Sequence record: PZ452582.1
DNA length: 64,000 nucleotides
Strand: one strand, 5' to 3'
From: a phage
The notes beneath the pieces were generated by a model. The model had not been told where the DNA came from. It did not search any database and worked only from the letters and a program-made list of their open reading frames with translations. The stretch's first letter is position 1; every line of letters begins with the position of its first letter. The translations under genes and the position numbers were made by a program. Below, one piece after another: positions 49,622 through 60,552 of the stretch.

Positions 49622-50278
49622 TTATTTAGCCCTTCCTAATATTCTGGCCGCCTGAGCACATATTGATTCAAGGCGGTCATTACTTATATGATCATTTCTA
49701 TACCAGTACATGGTTATCGTTCCAGCATAGATATTATCCAAATTAAAATATGGACAACTGTACATGTAGTTTATTTCGGGAGTAGGCTTTTTAGTTGGTA
49801 AAAAAGCAAATTTTGAGTCAGAATAATAATGACGTCCATTTAAATGAACTGCATATTCATCCATAGTTTTATCAACAGGATATCCTCCAAGTGATTTTTC
49901 AGTTATTGTTGAAGGTAATCTTCCTTCGTATGCTATAATATCAACAAAATAGTTTAAGTTTTTAGGGCGGAAAGAATACACCGCACTAAAGTCTGCCTCA
50001 GATGATATATGAACTATCTGGAGTTGTTCCAGGGCGACAGATTCAAAGCGTGCATTTCTTTCCTTTTCAATAATTTCACTGTATGTTTCATACTTTGATT
50101 GCTTATAGTACTCAAAGAAACTATCTCCCCTATACCAAACAATCGCCATCATAAATAAAAGAATTACGACAGCTACCCGGGAAGCAAGAACTTTCCCGGT
50201 AGCGTTATCTTTGAACAAGCGATCTAGAACACCAAATAGAATATCAGAGGGCGAAAATGATATTCTAGGTGCTGCCAT
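49622..50278 (-). CDS. t: holin T
   Basis: 218 aa MAAPRISFSPSDILFGVLDRLFKD..., one TM segment, large periplasmic domain; convergent with asiA. Confidence 0.92.
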   Translation of the reverse strand: MAAPRISFSPSDILFGVLDRLFKDNATGKVLASRVAVVILLFMMAIVWYRGDSFFEYYKQSKYETYSEIIEKERNARFESVALEQLQIVHISSEADFSAVYSFRPKNLNYFVDIIAYEGRLPSTITEKSLGGYPVDKTMDEYAVHLNGRHYYSDSKFAFLPTKKPTPEINYMYSCPYFNLDNIYAGTITMYWYRNDHISNDRLESICAQAARILGRAK

Positions 50279-50310
50279 AGACCCTCCTTTTAAGGATATT
50301 TATTCAAAAA

Positions 50311-51096
50311 TTATACTCTTGAACCATATATTGTACCAACCTTAGTCCAAGTTGGAGCATTACCAGTAACAGCTTTACCGGCCGCACCGCCGTTATATTC
50401 TGATCCTTGCCCACGAATATTACATTTACCACCTGCGGCACCAGCATCACCGCCATTACCGCCATTATAGATACCATTGACAGACCCTTTACCAGGTGCA
50501 GAAATAGTACCAGCAGTAGCGCCCTGTTCCATATTAGCAGACCCGCCAGCAGCACCAAATGGACGACCGCCGCCACCGCCAAAAGTCAATTTCATTTGTG
50601 AAAAAGGAGAATAATATCCGCCTCCACCGCCGCCACCGCCTCCTGCGATAACACCATTGTTGTTAATACGCAATCTAGTTCCAATTCCATTATTTATTGC
50701 AGTTCCTCCTGCTCCACCGGCAGAGTTATTTCCGCCATTCCCGCCACGGCCCCAAACATGCACGCCTGAATTGATATTAAGTGTCACGTATGCATTAGTT
50801 AATGAGCTAGGAAAATCTAAGCATGGAACACCAGTAGATTGAGAAACAATATTTCCTGTAATAGTAATAACAACAGGCGTGGACCCTTGTGCTTTTATCC
50901 AGTTTATTAATGTATCTTTATTATAAGAATTACTAGCACCAATGCTATAATATACTTCTTTAGATTGTCCGGCCATTGAGCTCATCCAACCGGGAACTGA
51001 AACACGGACTGCTCTCATTGCAGCATCCATCCAACGTTGTCCAGTTTCATTCACGGCAGATTCACCAATCCAGCCAGGAACACCTACAATTGCCAT
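50311..51096 (-). CDS. 38: gp38 tail-fibre adhesin, T2 type (glycine-rich motifs)
   Basis: 261 aa; conserved N-terminus MAIVGVPGWIGESAVNETGQRWMD; poly-Gly motifs GGGGGGGGGYY, GGNGGNN. Confidence 0.85.
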   Translation of the reverse strand: MAIVGVPGWIGESAVNETGQRWMDAAMRAVRVSVPGWMSSMAGQSKEVYYSIGASNSYNKDTLINWIKAQGSTPVVITITGNIVSQSTGVPCLDFPSSLTNAYVTLNINSGVHVWGRGGNGGNNSAGGAGGTAINNGIGTRLRINNNGVIAGGGGGGGGGYYSPFSQMKLTFGGGGGRPFGAAGGSANMEQGATAGTISAPGKGSVNGIYNGGNGGDAGAAGGKCNIRGQGSEYNGGAAGKAVTGNAPTWTKVGTIYGSRV

Positions 51097-51108
51097 TAAA
51101 AATCCTTA

Positions 51109-51124
51109 GAGGGCCGAAGCCCTC
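51109..51124 (-). other. intergenic stem-loop between genes 37 and 38
   Basis: GAGGGC-UUCG-GCCCUC on the minus-strand transcript; no U tail, so attenuator or stability element rather than a full terminator. Confidence 0.45.
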
Positions 51125-51126
51125 TT

Positions 51127-54100
51127 TTACATAAGTTTAGATTCAAGTTCTTTTACACGAGAAGAAAGCGTTTTCACAGCTTCAACCAGAAGAGCAATCT
51201 GGGCTTGAGAAGAAACAGTGAGTATTTTATTACCCTTGCTGTCTTCTGTTTCACGGACGGCTTCTGGTAAAACGTCTTGTAGCGTTTGAGCTACAATACC
51301 CGCTTCAGTTTCAATTGCCTCTCCACCGATGTATTCAGCTTTATCATAAATGACACCATTGAGTTTTTCAACTTTATCAAGTGCATTTTCGATAGGTTTG
51401 AAATTAGATTTTAAGCGAATATCAGAACGAATATAAACGTTTGGGGCATTTATATTTTTATATGAGTACAAATCACCATTTTGGAAACGGAAAGTCTGTA
51501 CACCATTCGCATATATGTCTAATAATCCATCGCCATTTTGCTTAATACCAGTGTCATTATCGCCAAACGCTATACTATTTCCACCAAGTGCGTTATTGAT
51601 GTTAATACCAAATGAATTCATTTGATTAACACCAGCTACAGTAGCATTATTTACTACAAAGCGATTAGCTCCACCTGGTGTTTTTTCAAAGTAAGCAATA
51701 TAGTTAGTTTCATCGGCAATTTCAATACGGTTACCGCGAGAAGCATCGCCAGCATGAAATATTCTCATATTTCTCGGGTTAGCACCTGATTTATCAAAGT
51801 TAATAGAACCATTATCTTTGACGTTTATGCTATTATAGAATAAAGCAGCGCTGCGAACAGCTATGCCATTATTCATCATCACTTCGCCGGTTGTTAAGTT
51901 AATTGCGAAAGGACGTTTACTATTCCAATCGCCATTAACAGTTGCTGCGCCATCGGTGGCATTTTTATCTGTAAACAGAATATAAAAACTACCGCCATCA
52001 TTTCGTAGCATTGTAGCAACAGAACCAGTTTTATCGCTGTTGCTTCTGATACGAATACCGGTTTGGTTATTAATAGCTATTTCAGAATCGGCTTCATAAC
52101 GCTTAACTTTACCGCGATCAACTAAGTTATTAAGAACATTAGCAACTTGACCATTAACTGCTGTATCTGGAAGAGCATCTACAGGTGATTGTGTAGATGA
52201 GTTAATACCAATAACACTAACAGTAGCATTTTCGGTACATGACCACTCACAAGCTAATTGATTACAATATGTTCCAGCAGAAACATAAATGTCATATGTA
52301 TCTCCAGAGACGTTATTAACTGCAATATCTTTAAATGCAGCTCCAATTGTTCTTGTGTATAATGCAGCATTTAAGTCAGCAGGTCTTTCATTACTAGTAC
52401 GTAAAACAATTTCAGCAATATTACATTGTGTGAATAATCCGCTATTAAATCCAGAACCTCCAACTATTTTAAAGAAGACCGTTGAAGTGGATTGTGGCAT
52501 TGTTACTGTTGCAAACTTATACCATCCAGCGGTTGCTCCATAAGTAATAAATCCAGAATTAACTTTACGGTTTAACGTGGTATTTAAATTGGCAAAGTTT
52601 CCTGAACCACTGGTAATATTACCGTCAGTTCCTAGTTGGGCATTTCCGACTTTAAGAGGCTTAGTAATATCGACAGTATCAGAGTTTAATGCAATACCAT
52701 GGGAGTGAGTGTAACTATGCATACGAACGACGTTTCCGCCATCGCCAATACCTAAATACCATTTCGGAACATCTGCTTTACGTCCTTGGATGAAGTTAGA
52801 AGACTCTTGCGTTGGAGCATTTATTCTAATAGCATCTGATGCCATATTTAGTGTTATACGTTGATTAGAAGTAGTTCCAGCCACTTCTACTTTAAATCTA
52901 CCGCCGCCAATATCTACATCATGATCCATGGAAACTTTACCATTACTTAATGTAATATAGAACGGACGTAAATTAGAAATGCCGCCTGATTCACCCGCAT
53001 TCTGTGGGGTTGGAATAATATAAAACTTATCTTCAGAACGACGGAAAATAGCACCGTATTCAGCATTCCAAATTCTTAATGCATCAGCAGTTCCGCCGAT
53101 TTTAACTTGTCCATTTACAGACAATCCATTATCAGCATTCAGGGAAGATCTTGTTGTAATAGAACCAGAAGTTAATAAACTACCGGCCATCGCAAATTCA
53201 ACAGAACCGGCAGTAGAACCTGCTGCAGGAGCAACGCGCTGTGAATAAAAATGCCAACCCTGTCCATCGCCTAATTCAAATACAGTTTCTCTGTTTTTAT
53301 TAGTGTTATCCTCAAATGCATTGCCCCATGCTTTCATGGTCACATAGCTTTTGTTCTGACCCGGGCGGGTGCCTGCGTTCCATTGTATTGTCTTAGTTCC
53401 ATTTATAGAAGAAGAAGCGCCAAATTTAAGACCGGCGTTAGAAGAACTACTATTAAAGAATAACCCATTATTAAGCTTAACTTCTTGAGTAGATGCAACA
53501 GTACCATCAGCACGCAAATTTAATGAATTTGAACCAGTTTTAATATCTAAAATGCCAGGCTCAACAAGAAGTCCATCGCCCATACTAACGGACATACGAC
53601 CTGTACCACGGAAATAGTGATACATTTTAGAATTACTGCTATAACCGATATGAGTTTGACCATCACCGTTATTATTACCATCAACATCGGTACGCGCAGT
53701 AAACATTGCTTGGTTGTTATTTGGGAAATCCCAAGTAGTACCAGAATCGCGGCTATAACCGACCATCAATTTTTTAGTACTATTAATACCATTATTAATA
53801 ATAGTCGCCGCAGAAATACCGTTAGCCATTAAGTCAATAACGCCAGTACGAACCCATTTAAGTCCAGAAGCATTATCGCCAAGAGCTAAATACCTATCTC
53901 CCATTACCCCGGTATTTCCATAATCGCTTGACGGGTATCCTTCAGTCACAGTACCAATGGCCAAGCTATTGCGGATAATCATTCTACCGTCGTTACGAAT
54001 ACCGTATAGTTTAAATAACGGTATATTACCAGTCCACCAAGAAACTTCATCAGCTAGCCCAGTCTGAGCTGTACAAATTTCATGGTAAATAGTTCCACCT

Positions 54101-54786
54101 GATTTAGCTCGAACTTTACGAAGATAGTTTACACCATTTGTTTCGCCTGTGCCAGGATAAACATACTGAACTAATGACTGCGAATCATAGGTCCCAAAAG
54201 ATTTAGAATCATGATTAATTAAATTAACACTAATAGTTGGTGTACTAATAGAAGTTAAAGCAGTTAATTTGCGTGCCTGGAAGATACCGCCATCAGTAGA
54301 AATGAAATGAAATTCTGAATTTTGAGCTCCCGCAGCGGTTCCTTGACGAACACGCATTGTAATTACGCCTTCATTTTCAGACTGCGGTTTTGAATATAAA
54401 ACGCCACGTTCTGAGCCATTTGTATTTTCAAACCAAAGATGGGCATTTGCAGTATCATTTATTGCTCTTGTATAAAATGAACCGGATGTTGATCTGAATA
54501 CTGTAGCAGAAACAATATTACTTGCCGTAATAGTACCACTTGTAGAAAAATTTCCAAAGTTGTTTATTGGTCCATTGACGCGTAAAGTTCCATCAATAGT
54601 TACATTTCCATTAATTTGACCGCCTTTAGCAATACCTAGATCAATGATATTTCCTGAATCATCTTTAGTAAAAATTGTTCTATCTTTTAAGTTTATAGCC
54701 AATTCACCTTCGGCTAATACTGAAGCAGCAGGACGTGCACCTGCGGTTTTGCTTCTTTTAAATTGTATTTGTTTTAAAGTAGCCAT
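51127..54786 (-). CDS. 37: gp37 long tail fibre distal subunit with C-terminal chaperone-like domain
   Basis: 1219 aa; N-terminus MATLKQIQFKRSKTAGARPAASVLAEGELAINL; last ~98 aa (IRS/DIRLKSNF...) resemble a self-cleaving intramolecular chaperone. Confidence 0.88.
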   Translation of the reverse strand: MATLKQIQFKRSKTAGARPAASVLAEGELAINLKDRTIFTKDDSGNIIDLGIAKGGQINGNVTIDGTLRVNGPINNFGNFSTSGTITASNIVSATVFRSTSGSFYTRAINDTANAHLWFENTNGSERGVLYSKPQSENEGVITMRVRQGTAAGAQNSEFHFISTDGGIFQARKLTALTSISTPTISVNLINHDSKSFGTYDSQSLVQYVYPGTGETNGVNYLRKVRAKSGGTIYHEICTAQTGLADEVSWWTGNIPLFKLYGIRNDGRMIIRNSLAIGTVTEGYPSSDYGNTGVMGDRYLALGDNASGLKWVRTGVIDLMANGISAATIINNGINSTKKLMVGYSRDSGTTWDFPNNNQAMFTARTDVDGNNNGDGQTHIGYSSNSKMYHYFRGTGRMSVSMGDGLLVEPGILDIKTGSNSLNLRADGTVASTQEVKLNNGLFFNSSSSNAGLKFGASSSINGTKTIQWNAGTRPGQNKSYVTMKAWGNAFEDNTNKNRETVFELGDGQGWHFYSQRVAPAAGSTAGSVEFAMAGSLLTSGSITTRSSLNADNGLSVNGQVKIGGTADALRIWNAEYGAIFRRSEDKFYIIPTPQNAGESGGISNLRPFYITLSNGKVSMDHDVDIGGGRFKVEVAGTTSNQRITLNMASDAIRINAPTQESSNFIQGRKADVPKWYLGIGDGGNVVRMHSYTHSHGIALNSDTVDITKPLKVGNAQLGTDGNITSGSGNFANLNTTLNRKVNSGFITYGATAGWYKFATVTMPQSTSTVFFKIVGGSGFNSGLFTQCNIAEIVLRTSNERPADLNAALYTRTIGAAFKDIAVNNVSGDTYDIYVSAGTYCNQLACEWSCTENATVSVIGINSSTQSPVDALPDTAVNGQVANVLNNLVDRGKVKRYEADSEIAINNQTGIRIRSNSDKTGSVATMLRNDGGSFYILFTDKNATDGAATVNGDWNSKRPFAINLTTGEVMMNNGIAVRSAALFYNSINVKDNGSINFDKSGANPRNMRIFHAGDASRGNRIEIADETNYIAYFEKTPGGANRFVVNNATVAGVNQMNSFGININNALGGNSIAFGDNDTGIKQNGDGLLDIYANGVQTFRFQNGDLYSYKNINAPNVYIRSDIRLKSNFKPIENALDKVEKLNGVIYDKAEYIGGEAIETEAGIVAQTLQDVLPEAVRETEDSKGNKILTVSSQAQIALLVEAVKTLSSRVKELESKLM

Positions 54787-54794
54787 AAGTCCTC

Positions 54795-55454
54795 TTAATA
54801 ATAGCCGAAATCTTGAACAGAATCCTTAATTACGATTTGGTCAAATCGTGGAACGTGTGAAGGTTGAGATGCAGGATTCTGCGAGAAAAAGTTTGGTGCG
54901 GTTAAGTTTCCAGTCATAGTGTCTCCTTTACGGAAAACTCTAGAATCCGCATTTGCCGTAACAGTATTTATTGCTCCATCAACATAATCTTTTCGAGTAA
55001 GGTCATTCACTGCTATAGGAGCAGCCGCATCACTTCTTACTTGACCTGATGCTGATACAACACCTTTTGTGCTAATATCACCATTACGTGTATTAATTAC
55101 AACAGTTCGGGCTGCTGAACCTTGTGATGATTTAAAACCAATACCGTACCACGAAACAATATCCATATTTGTAGTATCATACGTGGCATTATCACCAGGA
55201 CCAGCAAAAATACCATTGTCACCTGATCCTGCGCCAGGGACAGTCATCCCTTTATTAAAAATTACCTTATTTAAATAAGTACCGCCATTAGCTTTAGAAA
55301 CGAAATCGTTATCAGCCGCTTGCGGTTTATTGTATTCTGAATATATTTTAAATGATTTATAGAGTACATCGTCACCGGCTGGATTCAATGGAAAATTTCC
55401 TTGATGCCAAATGACAGAGCCTCCAGTTGTTGAACCTACTTTTAAATCAGCCAT
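54795..55454 (-). CDS. 36: gp36 tail fibre hinge-connector
   Basis: 219 aa, directly upstream of 37. Confidence 0.85.
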   Translation of the reverse strand: MADLKVGSTTGGSVIWHQGNFPLNPAGDDVLYKSFKIYSEYNKPQAADNDFVSKANGGTYLNKVIFNKGMTVPGAGSGDNGIFAGPGDNATYDTTNMDIVSWYGIGFKSSQGSAARTVVINTRNGDISTKGVVSASGQVRSDAAAPIAVNDLTRKDYVDGAINTVTANADSRVFRKGDTMTGNLTAPNFFSQNPASQPSHVPRFDQIVIKDSVQDFGYY

Positions 55455-55477: not shown

Positions 55478-55485
55478 TATTTATA
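55478..55485 (-). promoter_or_regulatory. late promoter TATAAATA for gene 36
   Basis: Exact TATAAATA on the minus strand about 25 nt upstream of gene 36 ATG. Confidence 0.6.
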
Positions 55486-55486
55486 A

Positions 55487-55510
55487 AGAAAAAGGGAACC
55501 CGAAGGCTCC
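55487..55510 (-). terminator. hairpin GGGAGCC-UUCG-GGUUCCC plus U5 after gene 35
   Basis: Stem with one G-U pair then UUUUU on the minus-strand RNA. Confidence 0.5.
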
Positions 55511-55516
55511 CTCAGT

Positions 55517-56632
55517 TTAAACTTCTCTAAATTCTTGCCCAAACACTTTACCAGTTTTAGACGATGCTTGTGTAGGAAGTACCATTATATCCGGAGGTGA
55601 AGCAGATTCACAGATATAATTAACACGAATACCATTGACGCCAAATTCAGCAGGTTTTGAAATGCCGCCGTTTCTTGATACTTCAGAAAAGCTTAAATTT
55701 CGCATACCGCCTTGTCCAGCTTGAGCAGTTCTTTGCGCATATATCGTAAATCCAACTGCATTTTCTGGAACAACTACATAGTCTTCCTTTAATTCCCAAG
55801 ACCCAGCCTGTCCAGTAAACTCAGCTTGTGTCGAGGAAATATATCCATTAGATGCATTATAAAAACGGATAGATATATTTGTAGTTCCAAGCGCAAGTAA
55901 ATCAGCATCGGCATATAACTGGGCTTTAAGATAAAGAACGTCACCAGGAATTAAATTATAATCAGAGAGTTTACTTATAGCAGCTGAAGTTGGTAATCTT
56001 GCAATTTCGTTATTAGTTCCACCAACCGCTGACATAAATTGCTCAACGCTTTCATACGTTCTTCTTGGAAACCCGGTAGCTCCGACGTCTTCTAAACTGT
56101 CAAATACAACATCTAAAATAGTTTGATAATCATCTGTGCTTTTTCTATTACTCAGTTTAACATGCTCTAATGCAATAGCTCTTTTAGAAGAAGTATAAAA
56201 AGCAGCATATGATACGTCGAATCTTGACAATACAGAGTCAGATGGAAAAGCAGACGTTCCTGCTGTTCTTAACCAAGATACTACTTCAGGAGGAAAATTA
56301 ACCTTTCCGTTAGTTAATATAGCAACAATTCGATTATTCGTCAAAGAATTCATGAAACTAACAAAGGCAGCTGATGTAGTATCATTTGAAGTCGAAAAAG
56401 CATATGATTTACTATCAACTAATGCTCCGGTGGAAGGGTCAAAAACTCTTAAATGAAGACCTGCGCTAAATGTTTGATTTCCTACAGGATTATCCTGAAA
56501 TTTAACGTATGGTCCTGCTGTAGAAAGCGGGCAAGAACCCGCTATGCTTATTTTATATCTTACTGAATTGCTTTCCGATAAAAATGGCGTTTGGACATAT
56601 CCTTGTCCAAACTCTGCCATAAATTTTTCCAT
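55517..56632 (-). CDS. 35: gp35 tail fibre hinge protein
   Basis: 371 aa, between genes 34 and 36. Confidence 0.85.
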   Translation of the reverse strand: MEKFMAEFGQGYVQTPFLSESNSVRYKISIAGSCPLSTAGPYVKFQDNPVGNQTFSAGLHLRVFDPSTGALVDSKSYAFSTSNDTTSAAFVSFMNSLTNNRIVAILTNGKVNFPPEVVSWLRTAGTSAFPSDSVLSRFDVSYAAFYTSSKRAIALEHVKLSNRKSTDDYQTILDVVFDSLEDVGATGFPRRTYESVEQFMSAVGGTNNEIARLPTSAAISKLSDYNLIPGDVLYLKAQLYADADLLALGTTNISIRFYNASNGYISSTQAEFTGQAGSWELKEDYVVVPENAVGFTIYAQRTAQAGQGGMRNLSFSEVSRNGGISKPAEFGVNGIRVNYICESASPPDIMVLPTQASSKTGKVFGQEFREV

Positions 56633-56640
56633 AATACCTC

Positions 56641-59600
56641 TTATTCAACCCATTCAAATTTAACCGTTTTATTCACTGGGTCAGGAATAATGCGAACATT
56701 ACCAATTCGTAAGAAATCACGAATAGTAAGATTCCCCATTGTAGCATTATCAGATGGTAAAGCACCGATATCAGACGGCTGAGGAGGGTTACCTCCGTCA
56801 AATACCTGAACAAAACTTGACCAAGAGTTTTTGGTTTTCTGCCATGTACGTGTCCAGCGAGTGGTACGCGCTTCTGGCGTCGTTGGATAAGTAATCCAAT
56901 CTTGGTAAAGCGAATCAAGTGTGTTACCAAACTGAGTCAGTGTACCAGGAGATTTAACTTCTTCGCCACGTTCTAAGTATGGAAGCCCAGTCACTTCGTT
57001 AGTTTTTTCAACCATTTTAAAATAACCCGGGAATTGGTTATAAGTAGCTGAATCGTTAATATCAATTGACCAGAATCCTACCGTATCAGATGTTGGTGCA
57101 CGGGTATATAAATCAGATGTTTTAGTACCCTGAGAACGAATTCTCGAGTTAACAGTCAAACCACCTGAATTTATAGTAGCACCTTTAGCAATGATTAAGC
57201 TTTCACCGATCGTTACTTGACCAGATGCATTATTAATAGCTAAAGGACGTAATCCATTAAATCCGCCAGTCTGATCACCCGATGCAGTAAGCATAAAATA
57301 TGTGTTAGCAGCATCATTGCGAATAAAGAATCCATAGTCGCCATTTATTGCTCTGAAAGCATTTGCAGACTTGCTGATGAATTCGCCATTGGCTGTAACT
57401 GAACTACCAAATGTTGCTACGCCATTCGCATTCAATGAACCGGAAGCGTTAACATTTATTGGCATCACAGTACCATTAATGCTAAACGTAATATTACCAG
57501 CTTTATTACGTTGAGAATAAAAGTGATTAGATGTTTCATCACCAACTTCAAATACAGTAGAACGCGTTGTATCTGATCCGCCACCAAACTGATTTCCCCA
57601 AACTCTGATAGTCATCGTCTGCGCTGGGTTAGTTCCAGTTTGAGGTCCTTTCTCAAAAATCAGACGAGTTGCCGTTCCAGTATTAGAAATAGTTAATGTA
57701 CTATTTGCCGAAACTGATCCACCAAACGTAGCAGTACTAGATGATACAAGAGGGGCACTCAGATTCGTTTGTTGGGTTAAGGTTAGTGAACCATTAACCG
57801 TCTGTGCGATATCCCTACGAATGAACTGAGATGAATCTAGACCATCCAATAAATTTGTATCAGCAGCTTTTGCTTTTAATGGCAAATAATTTGCTAATAC
57901 ACGGTTTAATTCATATGGTGATACCGCATAGCTATTTTTCTCATACAGTTCTAAATCTTGGGTAGAACCGACTGTATCATTACCAACGAATGTAATTGAA
58001 CCAGATGAAGTTTTAACAAAACCTCTTATTGCAGTAGTAGCTGCCCAAGTAGGTTCACTCTGCACAATCCATTTTAAATTTTTTGGAGATACAGCAGTGT
58101 TCGCTGACGTTCCAGTCACAGTTTCAGACTGAGTTGCAACTTTAATAACACCTTCTTGCGATTCGGTAGATTTAGTACCTAAAAGCTTTTTAGGAGTTAT
58201 TAAAACATTATCTAATGTTCCTGCAGCAGCTTCAACTTGTGTAGCTACACGAAGTGTACCACGTTGCGTCTCATTTGCTTCAAGAATATTAAGGGTATAA
58301 TGGTCCCAGAGAGTTCCTGATTCAACTAATCCAGATAGAGCAACAACAGAAGTACGATCAGTACTATTAAATCTGGTTTTAATTTTTAATGGTGTAGAGA
58401 TACGAGTATCGTCGACGCCTGCGTCGAATTCAACTTGTGTAGCAATTTCAGCTATACCACTTAAACTTTCAGTTGCTCTACGGTCATTTAAAGTTTTAGG
58501 AGTGACTGCACGAGTATAATCAGTTCCTGTATTAACTTCACTTTGCGTAGCAATTTCAATTAAACCAATTCTTCCATCAGTTGATGTCTTTTTATGTAAC
58601 GTTTCTGGCGTTACAACAGCATTTGCCCATCCTTCTTGACTTTGACCAGCAATTACTTCACTTTCAACTGCTAAAATTACTGCACCTTGCTGTGTTGGAG
58701 TAGCTTTATACTGATCCAAAGCTTTTGGCGAAACAACTAAATTATTAGTGTTTTTATTATAAACATTCGTACCATTTAATTCACGGCTAGAAGCTGGAGT
58801 AGCACCTGCAGTAGATACAAAAGTTACAATACCAGATAATGATTCAGAACCTTGACGAGCTTGAAGCTTTTTAGGAGTAATGATGGTTGTATCATCTGTT
58901 CCTGCGTTTGTTTCTTGCTGAGTAGCAATTTCTGCAACACCTCTGCGAGTTTCTGTAGCAGTTCTTTCATTCAGCTTTTTAGGAGTGATGATAATATCAT
59001 CAGCAAAAGAGAATGTGGTGTTCTGATTCACTTGAGCAGTAGTTGCTATTCTTGCAATACCTCTGCGAGTTTCAGTAGCAGTACGGTTAGCTAATGTTTC
59101 TGGAGTAATTGCTAATTCTTTTTGTGGAGAATTTTCTAAATCGACGTTAGCTTGAGCTTGTGTAGCTAAAGCAATTACGCCTAATCTTGCTCTAGTAGAA
59201 TCATTTAAAGAATCTACTCTTTCGACAGTTGGAACGTTTTGCTGTACAACCCAATATTTTCCATCAGAATCTTCAATATAAGCAAGTTGTAAAACTGGAA
59301 CATAATTAGTTTCACCGTTAAAAACTAATTCTTGAACAGTCACCCATTCAGCTTCAGGCGGATATTCTGAACGTTTTGGGAATTGCAGCAATTGAACTGA
59401 AGAAGCAATTTTATCTTCACCTGCAGCTTTGATTTTAACTGTTTGTCCTTTTCTCATGTAATTCATGGAAATTTTAACAGTATCACCAACAGAAATATTA
59501 GTTGGAAGCTGAAGCTCAATCGTTTGAGTTGTTCCGTTATTTGCACCAAATACCATAACTTCTTCGTTTGGACGAATATTTGAATTAGTCGTTATGATAC

Positions 59601-60510
59601 GTAAACGTGCTTTACTGTCCCCGTCAAACAATCTCCATAATTTCTCATTATCATCAAACATCAAGAAACCGTCAATCGATGTACGGCCTTCAATGGAATG
59701 AGTTCCATCTTCTTGTACTGATGTTGTTTCATCATATGTCGTAACAATTGTATGATAAAGTGGATTTAGTTTATCCAAATCAACGAAATTAATAATATCG
59801 CCATGATTAGCAAATCTTGGAAGTTTAATATTTATCGGTGCAGCAGAAGTAAATCTACGTACGATAAAATCGTTGGATTGCGCTTGATAAGTATTCGCTG
59901 GTGTTACAACTACAGCTTCTCTACTATAATCAGCTACATACATTTGCCACAGACGATTACTAAAAATTAAAACTAGCTGTGACTTTGGATGAGTCATTAG
60001 TACTGAACGTACTTGTTCACCTCTGAAGTTTACAATACTTTGCACCGGAGCTACAATTAAAACTTGGTTAACTCCAGGTTTTCCTCCAATATCTTGGAGA
60101 ACGATAGTATCACCATCAATTGGAGAAGATGGTAAAGTAAATGTAATATCATTACCAGCTGCGGTGTTAACCGAAATAGCTTCACCGGATTTTAATTGAT
60201 ATGAACCAGATGAAACCGTAATCCAGTTAGCATCGGTACGTAATGCTCTCCAGCGTCCGCTATTAAAAGCTCCTGCCGGTTTTGGAATATCATTTATAGC
60301 AGCCCAAAAGCGGTTATCATAAATGATTACAAAATCTTTTAAATATCCACGAGTTGGATCATATTGTTGAACTGTGTTTTCTTGAATTAAGTAATCAACG
60401 TTAACACCGTCAGTTCCTACGGTACGATCAGCTAAAGCTACGTTGATTATTTTATCACCACCTGCGTCCAGACCATCTTCTGCTCTGAACTTTCTTTTAA
60501 TCTCGGCCAT
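56641..60510 (-). CDS. 34: gp34 long tail fibre proximal subunit
   Basis: 1289 aa (T4 gp34 length); repetitive beta-rich sequence. Confidence 0.92.
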   Translation of the reverse strand: MAEIKRKFRAEDGLDAGGDKIINVALADRTVGTDGVNVDYLIQENTVQQYDPTRGYLKDFVIIYDNRFWAAINDIPKPAGAFNSGRWRALRTDANWITVSSGSYQLKSGEAISVNTAAGNDITFTLPSSPIDGDTIVLQDIGGKPGVNQVLIVAPVQSIVNFRGEQVRSVLMTHPKSQLVLIFSNRLWQMYVADYSREAVVVTPANTYQAQSNDFIVRRFTSAAPINIKLPRFANHGDIINFVDLDKLNPLYHTIVTTYDETTSVQEDGTHSIEGRTSIDGFLMFDDNEKLWRLFDGDSKARLRIITTNSNIRPNEEVMVFGANNGTTQTIELQLPTNISVGDTVKISMNYMRKGQTVKIKAAGEDKIASSVQLLQFPKRSEYPPEAEWVTVQELVFNGETNYVPVLQLAYIEDSDGKYWVVQQNVPTVERVDSLNDSTRARLGVIALATQAQANVDLENSPQKELAITPETLANRTATETRRGIARIATTAQVNQNTTFSFADDIIITPKKLNERTATETRRGVAEIATQQETNAGTDDTTIITPKKLQARQGSESLSGIVTFVSTAGATPASSRELNGTNVYNKNTNNLVVSPKALDQYKATPTQQGAVILAVESEVIAGQSQEGWANAVVTPETLHKKTSTDGRIGLIEIATQSEVNTGTDYTRAVTPKTLNDRRATESLSGIAEIATQVEFDAGVDDTRISTPLKIKTRFNSTDRTSVVALSGLVESGTLWDHYTLNILEANETQRGTLRVATQVEAAAGTLDNVLITPKKLLGTKSTESQEGVIKVATQSETVTGTSANTAVSPKNLKWIVQSEPTWAATTAIRGFVKTSSGSITFVGNDTVGSTQDLELYEKNSYAVSPYELNRVLANYLPLKAKAADTNLLDGLDSSQFIRRDIAQTVNGSLTLTQQTNLSAPLVSSSTATFGGSVSANSTLTISNTGTATRLIFEKGPQTGTNPAQTMTIRVWGNQFGGGSDTTRSTVFEVGDETSNHFYSQRNKAGNITFSINGTVMPINVNASGSLNANGVATFGSSVTANGEFISKSANAFRAINGDYGFFIRNDAANTYFMLTASGDQTGGFNGLRPLAINNASGQVTIGESLIIAKGATINSGGLTVNSRIRSQGTKTSDLYTRAPTSDTVGFWSIDINDSATYNQFPGYFKMVEKTNEVTGLPYLERGEEVKSPGTLTQFGNTLDSLYQDWITYPTTPEARTTRWTRTWQKTKNSWSSFVQVFDGGNPPQPSDIGALPSDNATMGNLTIRDFLRIGNVRIIPDPVNKTVKFEWVE

Positions 60511-60544: not shown

Positions 60545-60552
60545 TATTTATA
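60545..60552 (-). promoter_or_regulatory. late promoter TATAAATA for gene 34
   Basis: Exact TATAAATA on the minus strand about 35 nt upstream of gene 34 ATG. Confidence 0.6.

Follow-up and report, generated by a model that had tools for sequence, protein, structure and literature searches.

A stretch of 64,000 nucleotides from a phage (sequence record PZ452582.1), referred to below as the window and used as the frame for all coordinates, was analysed with respect to the genes for the distal end of the long tail fibre. The open reading frame (ORF) list, Pfam, and PHROG revealed a canonical T-even long-tail-fibre block on the minus strand at 49.6–60.5 kb, with the gene order g34-g35-g36-g37-g38-t (Table 1). 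The g38 gene was located directly downstream of g37, whose product carries a predicted cleavable C-terminal domain, and upstream of the holin gene t; the same order was observed in T2, T6, Sf22, and Bas39. The surrounding 25 kb had 96.5% identity to Bas39, and the window was therefore assigned to Tequatrovirus. The positions of the gp37 and gp38 ORFs coincided with those given in the initial annotation of this DNA, which had proposed a receptor-recognition module of the T2 type.

Table 1. Genes, domains, and signals of the long-tail-fibre block in the window
Feature	Position	Strand	Size or residues	Remarks
g34	56641-60510	(-)	1289 aa	
g35	55517-56632	(-)	371 aa	
g36, small distal fibre subunit	54795-55454	(-)	219 aa	Pfam Phage_T4_gp36, 3.8e-36
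g37, distal long-tail-fibre subunit precursor	51127-54786	(-)	1219 aa	PHROG 1699 "long tail fiber protein distal subunit", 1044 bits
Mosaic patch in gp37 shaft	52657-53046	(-)	aa 581-710	98.5% identical to vB_EcoM_G50
Predicted gp38 docking tip, last ~58 residues of mature gp37	51427-51600	(-)	aa 1063-1120	Ends ...NAPNVYIR; aligns with S16 tip 6F45_A
Predicted intramolecular chaperone / self-cleaving domain	51130-51426	(-)	aa 1121-1219, 99 aa	Peptidase_S74
Ser1121 codon, predicted nucleophile	51424-51426	(-)		Aligns with second Ser of S16 VS^SDRRIKK; matches T5 pb1 Ser1264
Lys1126 codon, predicted general base	51409-51411	(-)	Ser +5	S-D-x-R-x-K motif; T5 Ser1264/Lys1269 (PMC4690869)
UUCG-tetraloop GC-rich hairpin	51108-51125	(-)		Between g37 stop and g38 Shine-Dalgarno (AAGGA); -13.4 kcal/mol, z = -1.75 only vs shuffles
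g38, receptor-recognising adhesin, T2 type	50311-51096	(-)	261 aa	
gp38 N-terminal attachment domain	50971-51096	(-)	aa 1-42	Trp9, Trp22, Trp37; Pfam Gp38_N
gp38 specificity domain	50314-50754	(-)	aa 115-261	Glycine-rich motifs alternating with hypervariable segments; entropy profile, 9V85 match
Nine-glycine run, longest glycine-rich motif	50617-50643	(-)	aa 152-160	Nearly invariant among homologues; mixed GGA/GGC/GGT codons
Hypervariable segment 2, YYSPFSQMKLTF	50581-50616	(-)	aa 161-172	Highest column entropy, mean 2.54 bits; 10/12 as in T6, 0/12 as in T2
Hypervariable segment 3	50464-50553	(-)	aa 182-211	High entropy; 23/30 as in T6, 8/30 as in T2
Hypervariable segment 4	50392-50427	(-)	aa 224-235	High entropy; 10/12 as in T6, 3/12 as in T2
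Holin t	49622-50278	(-)	218 aa	
TATAAATA box, T4 late-promoter consensus	55478-55485	(-)		24 nt upstream of g36 start; motif scan
TATAAATA box	60545-60552	(-)		Just upstream of g34; motif scan
Second GC-rich UUCG hairpin	55492-55513	(-)		Intergenic gap between g35 and g36

The Pfam domains Gp34_trimer, gp37_trimer, and Peptidase_S74 were identified in gp37, with the last of them forming the final 99 of the 1219 residues, after the two trimer domains. The Peptidase_S74 match (PF13884, "chaperone of endosialidase") extended over residues 1121–1178 and the complete profile (positions 1–58 of 58) at 3.1e-15 and 56.6 bits (cut-off 22), which is far beyond chance. The 99 terminal residues were 100% identical to those of Bas39 and Sf22 and 99% identical to those of T2 and K3. 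This full-length match and the identity to T2 gp37 bear out the initial proposal that gp37 ends in a self-cleaving intramolecular chaperone-like domain. According to Pfam, Peptidase_S74 is also present in gp37 of T2 and T6; in T4 gp37 it was not found, and the Collar and Phage_fiber tip domains occur there instead. A profile of the chaperone domain built from the window, T2, K3, and T6 matched the S16 gp37 tip (6F45_A), the MyRF autocleavage domain (7DC3), and the tail fibre 8JOV in the PDB. From these profile matches, the chaperone fold of S74 domains, a helical coiled-coil core with tentacle hairpins in a trimer, is predicted for the gp37 C-terminus.

The string NVYIRSDIRLKSNFKPIENALDKVEKLNGVIYDKAEY, quoted in the initial annotation, is present in gp37, and its Ser is residue 1121. 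The SDIRLK sequence at this site aligned with SDRRIK of S16, SDSRLK of T6, and SDERLK of 8JOV, and the S-D-x-R-x-K motif was conserved in T2, T6, K3, S16, and 8JOV. The MyRF chain 7DC3 has ADLRAK, in which D-x-R-x-K is kept and Ala occupies the Ser position. The cut in S16 gp37 has been placed at DLNVS^SDRRIKK (PMC7917993). In T5 pb1 it is the Thr1263-Ser1264 bond that is cut, with the catalytic Ser released as part of the chaperone, as is also the case in K1F; for phi29 gp12, a Ser|Asp cut was modelled, with weaker density (PMC4690869). Because of the alignment with S16 VS^SDRRIKK and with the T5 pb1 Thr1263-Ser1264 bond, the scissile bond of gp37 is most likely Arg1120|Ser1121 (R1120^S1121) and not Ser|Asp, which would leave a mature end ...NAPNVYIR. 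A cut before Ser1121 would therefore release a domain of 99 residues. Thus, the S74-type domain of about 98 residues claimed at first was found, but the Ser-Asp junction claimed with it is probably one residue off, so that the domain would comprise 99 residues and not 98 (51130–51423).

Autoproteolytic release of this domain is expected by analogy with T2, whose chaperone domain is 99% identical and whose gp37 is processed at the C-terminus (Drexler et al., 1986, as cited in PMC3157838), and with S16, in which the docking surface for gp38 becomes accessible once the chaperone domain has cleaved itself off (PMC7917993, PMC7289586). Alternatively, the S74-like domain might have degenerated into a remnant that does not cleave and is retained on the mature fibre, given that the evidence for cleavage in this phage comes from the sequence only. 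We consider such a remnant highly improbable. Neither the Ser-Lys dyad nor any part of the 58-position profile has been lost, and the domain is 99–100% conserved across T2, K3, Sf22, and Bas39, in contrast to the mosaic shaft. In addition to the known processing of T2 gp37, an uncleaved chaperone would block the tip needed for gp38 docking (PMC7917993). Release of the chaperone domain after Arg1120 is thus the preferred reading, and the segment that would be exposed by it, residues 1063–1120, was 87–95% identical to the corresponding parts of T2, K3, and Bas39. The docking of gp38 on this tip is predicted from the S16 complex (PMC7917993).

The partner of the gp37 tip was equally well defined at the sequence level. 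The first 42 residues of gp38 matched Pfam Gp38_N (PF21721; 8.2e-18, 64.6 bits, cut-off 25, profile positions 1–40 of 40), so that the N-terminal attachment region claimed in the initial annotation was recovered. Residues W9, W22, and W37 aligned with the three Trp residues of S16 gp38, which act as prongs inserting into pockets of the gp37 tip (PMC7917993); W9 and W22 were at least 90% conserved in alignment A1 of the homologues. The attachment domain shared 41 of its 42 residues with T2 and 28 with T6. Since structure 6F45 is made up of three chains of gp37 and a single one of gp38, one adhesin monomer would cap one fibre trimer.

The whole of gp38 was assigned to the same adhesin family by Pfam GP38 (PF05268; 3.5e-72, 243 bits, cut-off 25, profile positions 1–218 of 218) and by PHROG 2056, "tail fiber protein; host specificity" (2e-105). 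Thus, the profile search for gp38-adhesin families gave full-length matches above the cut-offs with both Pfam models. Among the solved structures, gp38 matched S16 gp38 (6F45_D, 2.7e-49, residues 8–259) and the receptor-binding domain of PP01 gp38 (9V85, 1e-33). An AlphaFold2 model based on 58 homologues had a pLDDT of 92.8, and a Foldseek search of the PDB with this model returned 6f45_D (E 9.5e-22, TM 0.80/0.84) and 9v85 (TM 0.74/0.87), with no other fold at E < 1. According to the model, gp38 has the S16/PP01 adhesin fold, which is composed of an N-terminal attachment domain, a beta domain, and a polyglycine-II sandwich. The protein is 100% identical in at least 15 deposited phages, Bas39 among them, and the exact sequence was found on 21 contigs in a collection of about 15 billion proteins.

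These results also bear on a T4-type arrangement, in which gp38 would serve as an assembly chaperone only and not remain on the virion, leaving receptor binding to the C-terminus of gp37. Many deposited genomes do call the identical gp38 "distal long tail fiber assembly catalyst" or "tail assembly protein", and several such records could be read in its favour. However, BLASTP detected no similarity of gp38 to the 183-aa T4 gp38 (E = 19), gp37 has S74 where T4 gp37 has the Collar and Phage_fiber tip domains, and gp38 has the predicted fold of the S16 and PP01 adhesins. The labels are legacy name transfers, and the T4 RefSeq note itself calls the "gp38" of the T2 subfamily unrelated and the adhesin; on the identical gp38 they are a T4-derived misnomer for a T2-type adhesin. 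We therefore give the T4-type arrangement practically no credence. The initial annotation had set the 261-aa protein apart from the 183-aa T4 chaperone and regarded it as a T2-type tip adhesin, and both views held. In T2, T6, S16, and PP01, gp38 is known to be located in the virion at the fibre tip, where it sets the receptor (PMC3157838, PMC12892980).

Glycine accounts for 23% of gp38 residues, with a G9 run at residues 152–160, a G5 run at residues 173–177, and nine GG pairs. In order to describe the variability of the protein, 103 full-length homologues obtained from a 5.8-billion-cluster search were aligned, and column entropies were computed. Over residues 116–261, glycine columns had an entropy of 0.54 bits against 1.55 bits for non-glycine columns (Mann-Whitney p = 8e-9). 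Conserved blocks were WGRGGNG, GAGG...G9, GGGGGRPFG, NGGDAGAA, and the last 26 residues; variable blocks were located at residues 122–127, 160–172, 183–213, and 222–235. The same arrangement, five glycine-rich motifs and four hypervariable segments, has been described for gp38 by Trojet et al. (2011; PMC3157838), and the layout was first noted by Henning's group in 1987, as recounted in PMC12892980. The hypervariable segments are known host-range determinants (PMC3157838, PMC12892980), which, together with the entropy profile, bears out the initial suggestion that poly-glycine motifs are parted by variable segments that likely determine the host range. The only tandem repeats found in g37 and g38 were trivial 9-nt repeats of glycine codons in 2–2.6 copies. 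Because the codons of the G9 run are mixed, it is no obvious slippage tract.

A segment-wise comparison showed gp38 to be chimeric, with a T6-like hypervariable cassette (residues 152–235; 50392–50643) in a T2/Sf22-like scaffold. The scaffold comprises residues 1–151 and 236–261, and its attachment domain had 41–42 of 42 identical residues. Recombination at the conserved glycine motifs could account for this chimeric composition. The junction near residues 113–115 of gp38 corresponds to the boundary of functional experimental T2/PP01 chimeras (PMC12892980).

The composition of the cassette was then considered in relation to the receptor. Of the gp38 hypervariable residues, 45/58 were as in T6, 13/58 as in T2, and 16/58 as in the OmpC-dependent Sf22; for segments 2–4 the agreement with T6 was 43/54 residues, unlike with T2 or Sf22. 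Tsx-binding gp38 proteins have one common set of hypervariable segments (PMC3157838). In the supplementary table of the BASEL collection, Tsx is given as the primary receptor of Bas39 FriedrichMiescher and the deep core of lipopolysaccharide (LPS) as the secondary one. The most likely receptor of the present gp38 allele is the nucleoside channel Tsx, as judged from these relatives. The initial annotation was thus supported in placing specificity in gp38 at the fibre tip, but the receptor panel that it suggested, OmpA/OmpC/FadL/LPS, omits the best candidate, since gp38 is identical to that of the Tsx-dependent Bas39 and segments 2–4 are T6-like.

The same architecture could also serve a primary receptor other than Tsx, such as FadL/OmpF (as in T2), OmpA (K3), or OmpC (Sf22), or a second receptor besides Tsx. 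In gp38, the first 151 and the last 26 residues resemble those of T2 and Sf22, and the N-terminal half of gp37 resembles that of Sf22, a phage that depends on OmpC (PMC12892980); moreover, few hypervariable substitutions can broaden specificity (PMC3157838), and identical gp38 proteins occur in phages isolated on Shigella. These points are set against an identical gp38 in a phage scored as Tsx-dependent, T6-like segments 2–4 (43/54) that differ from those of T2 and Sf22, and the mapping of specificity to the hypervariable segments, with neither the shaft nor the attachment domain determining it (PMC3157838, PMC12892980). On balance, a non-Tsx or additional receptor seems unlikely, although it is the least improbable of the alternatives considered here, and Tsx is retained as the predicted receptor.

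With the observed gene order, family membership, fold assignment, catalytic motif, pattern of conservation and variability, and identity to characterised phages, we are highly confident that the locus encodes a T2/T6/S16-type distal end for the long tail fibre of a Tequatrovirus, working by the mechanism outlined below. No sequence feature contradicting a T2-type tip was found. Some points do weigh against this interpretation in its details. The exact scissile bond is deduced from alignment. Tsx is derived from the whole-phage phenotype of Bas39, whose gp37 shaft differs (71% overall identity), and small changes in hypervariable segments can add receptors, as in PST compared with T6 (PMC3157838).

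By analogy with the homologues, g36, g37, and g38 would probably be transcribed late from the TATAAATA promoter upstream of g36. The gp37 chains would then trimerise, and folding of the C-terminal triple beta-helix would be assisted by the last 99 residues as an intramolecular chaperone. After folding, cleavage between Arg1120 and Ser1121 by the Ser1121-Lys1126 dyad would set the chaperone trimer free. The exposed tip ...NAPNVYIR would be capped by a single gp38 (a 3:1 stoichiometry), whose N-terminal domain with Trp9, Trp22, and Trp37 would plug into the gp37 trimer. The glycine-rich motifs of gp38 are expected to form the polyglycine-II sandwich and to present the hypervariable loops distally to an outer-membrane protein, which for the present allele is most likely Tsx.

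The closest known systems include Bas39 (Escherichia phage FriedrichMiescher, MZ501066), with which the phages slur02, teqhal, teqsoen, JK38, and JLBYU22 were grouped. Bas39 has the same gene order, gp38 is identical at 261/261 residues, the chaperone domain at 100%, and gp37 residues 700–1219 at 88–100% per 50-aa bin. The shaft of Bas39 gp37 differs, with only 18–84% identity per 50-aa bin over residues 51–700, and the protein has 1260 residues compared with 1219 here. T2 (AP018813), the phage in which gp37 processing and the tip location of gp38 were established (PMC3157838, citing Drexler et al., 1986), has the same architecture, the chaperone domain being 99% identical and the gp38 attachment domain sharing 41/42 residues. 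However, the hypervariable segments of T2 gp38 are unrelated (13/58), its receptors are FadL/OmpF, and its gp37, of 1341 residues, has a shaft only 55% identical. The Tsx-specific adhesin of T6 (MH550421) has the hypervariable cassette in common (45/58; 10/12 in each of segments 2 and 4), whereas its attachment domain and the following beta domain belong to another subtype (28/42 and 25/72). The gp37 of T6 is 25% identical overall, and its chaperone domain is 42% identical and has a 13-aa C-terminal extension.

The gp37-gp38 tip of Salmonella phage S16 (6F45; Dunne et al., 2018) shares the gp38 fold (TM 0.80/0.84, 43% identity) and the three Trp prongs, and its gp37 tip and chaperone domain, including the SDxRxK motif, can be aligned with those of the window. 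S16 differs in binding Salmonella OmpC, in its other hypervariable loops, and in a chaperone domain of 113 residues compared with 99 here (PMC7917993). In the other Peptidase_S74 proteins compared, namely K1F endosialidase, T5 pb1, phi29 gp12, and the MyRF ICA, a C-terminal domain likewise follows a trimeric beta-helical fibre and has a Ser-Lys dyad five residues apart (PMC4690869); in T5 pb1 this domain has 133 residues, so that the present one, at 99, is short. Release of the domain in those proteins unmasks their own receptor-binding or enzymatic tip, whereas here, as in T2 and S16, it would unmask a docking site for a separate adhesin. The module is thus established textbook T-even biology, worked out between 1986 and 2026 in T2, K3, Ox2, T6, S16, and PP01. 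Published sequences include adhesins identical to this one, novelty is confined to the precise gp37 allele, and the findings matter little beyond annotation. For annotation, g38 should be labelled as adhesin and not as "assembly catalyst", and its receptor is predictable as Tsx. The hypervariable cassette (50392–50643) and the attachment boundary at about residues 113–115 are natural cut points for host-range engineering.

An exact look-up in the collection of about 15 billion proteins did not return the 1219-aa gp37, and the best full-length match, to Sf22, was 90%. Binned identities showed that residues 1–580 are Sf22-like (96–100%) and residues 700–1219 Bas39/K3-like, mostly at 88–100%, with 82–86% relative to K3 in two bins. 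Between them, residues 601–700 had at most 44% identity to Sf22, Bas39, K3, and T2, and this region falls in the patch matched by vB_EcoM_G50 (Table 1). The absence of the exact sequence pointed to possible novelty, but in a piecewise comparison every segment was at least 95% identical to known phages. On the sequence comparison, the gp37 allele is a new shuffle of known cassettes, and cassette shuffling is the normal state of the g37-g38 locus (PMC3157838). The new gp37 mosaic together with a T6-type cassette in a T2/Sf22-type gp38 scaffold could give a host range that no parent has, for example via a secondary contact borne by the shaft or a changed fibre geometry, but we regard this as very unlikely; if true, the allele could serve to illustrate recombination at the glycine motifs in nature.

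The late genes of T-even phages rely on TATAAATA. In the fibre block, this box was found upstream of g36 and g34 only, with none directly upstream of g37 or g38, which suggests that g36, g37, and g38 share one late transcript. The motif was not enriched in the window (5 found compared with 10.7 expected); a function of the box near g36 is therefore argued from its position alone. The sigma-70 promoter scan at 49–56 kb gave 20 matches, which is not above the expectation from shuffles (24 ± 4.9). In the record of phage K3 from 1987 (X04747), the stable hairpin element between g37 and g38 was annotated as "stem-loop; pot. transcription terminator".

Some additional features of the window were recorded. 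No tRNA genes were detected by a tRNA scan of the whole 64 kb, nor any Rfam family at the gathering threshold. The GC content reached 0.44–0.47 at 50250–50999 and 0.49 in the gp38 specificity domain, compared with 0.347 window-wide, and the rise at 50250–50999 is due entirely to GGN glycine codons. Stop-free ORFs of 61–92 aa in alternative frames inside g38 (50304–50582, 50407–50601, and 50657–50842) were judged by-products of these GC-rich glycine codons and not genes. In addition, residues 58–127 of gp35, the fibre hinge protein, matched Pfam ILEI (PF15711, "interleukin-like EMT inducer") at 6e-9, above the curated cut-off.

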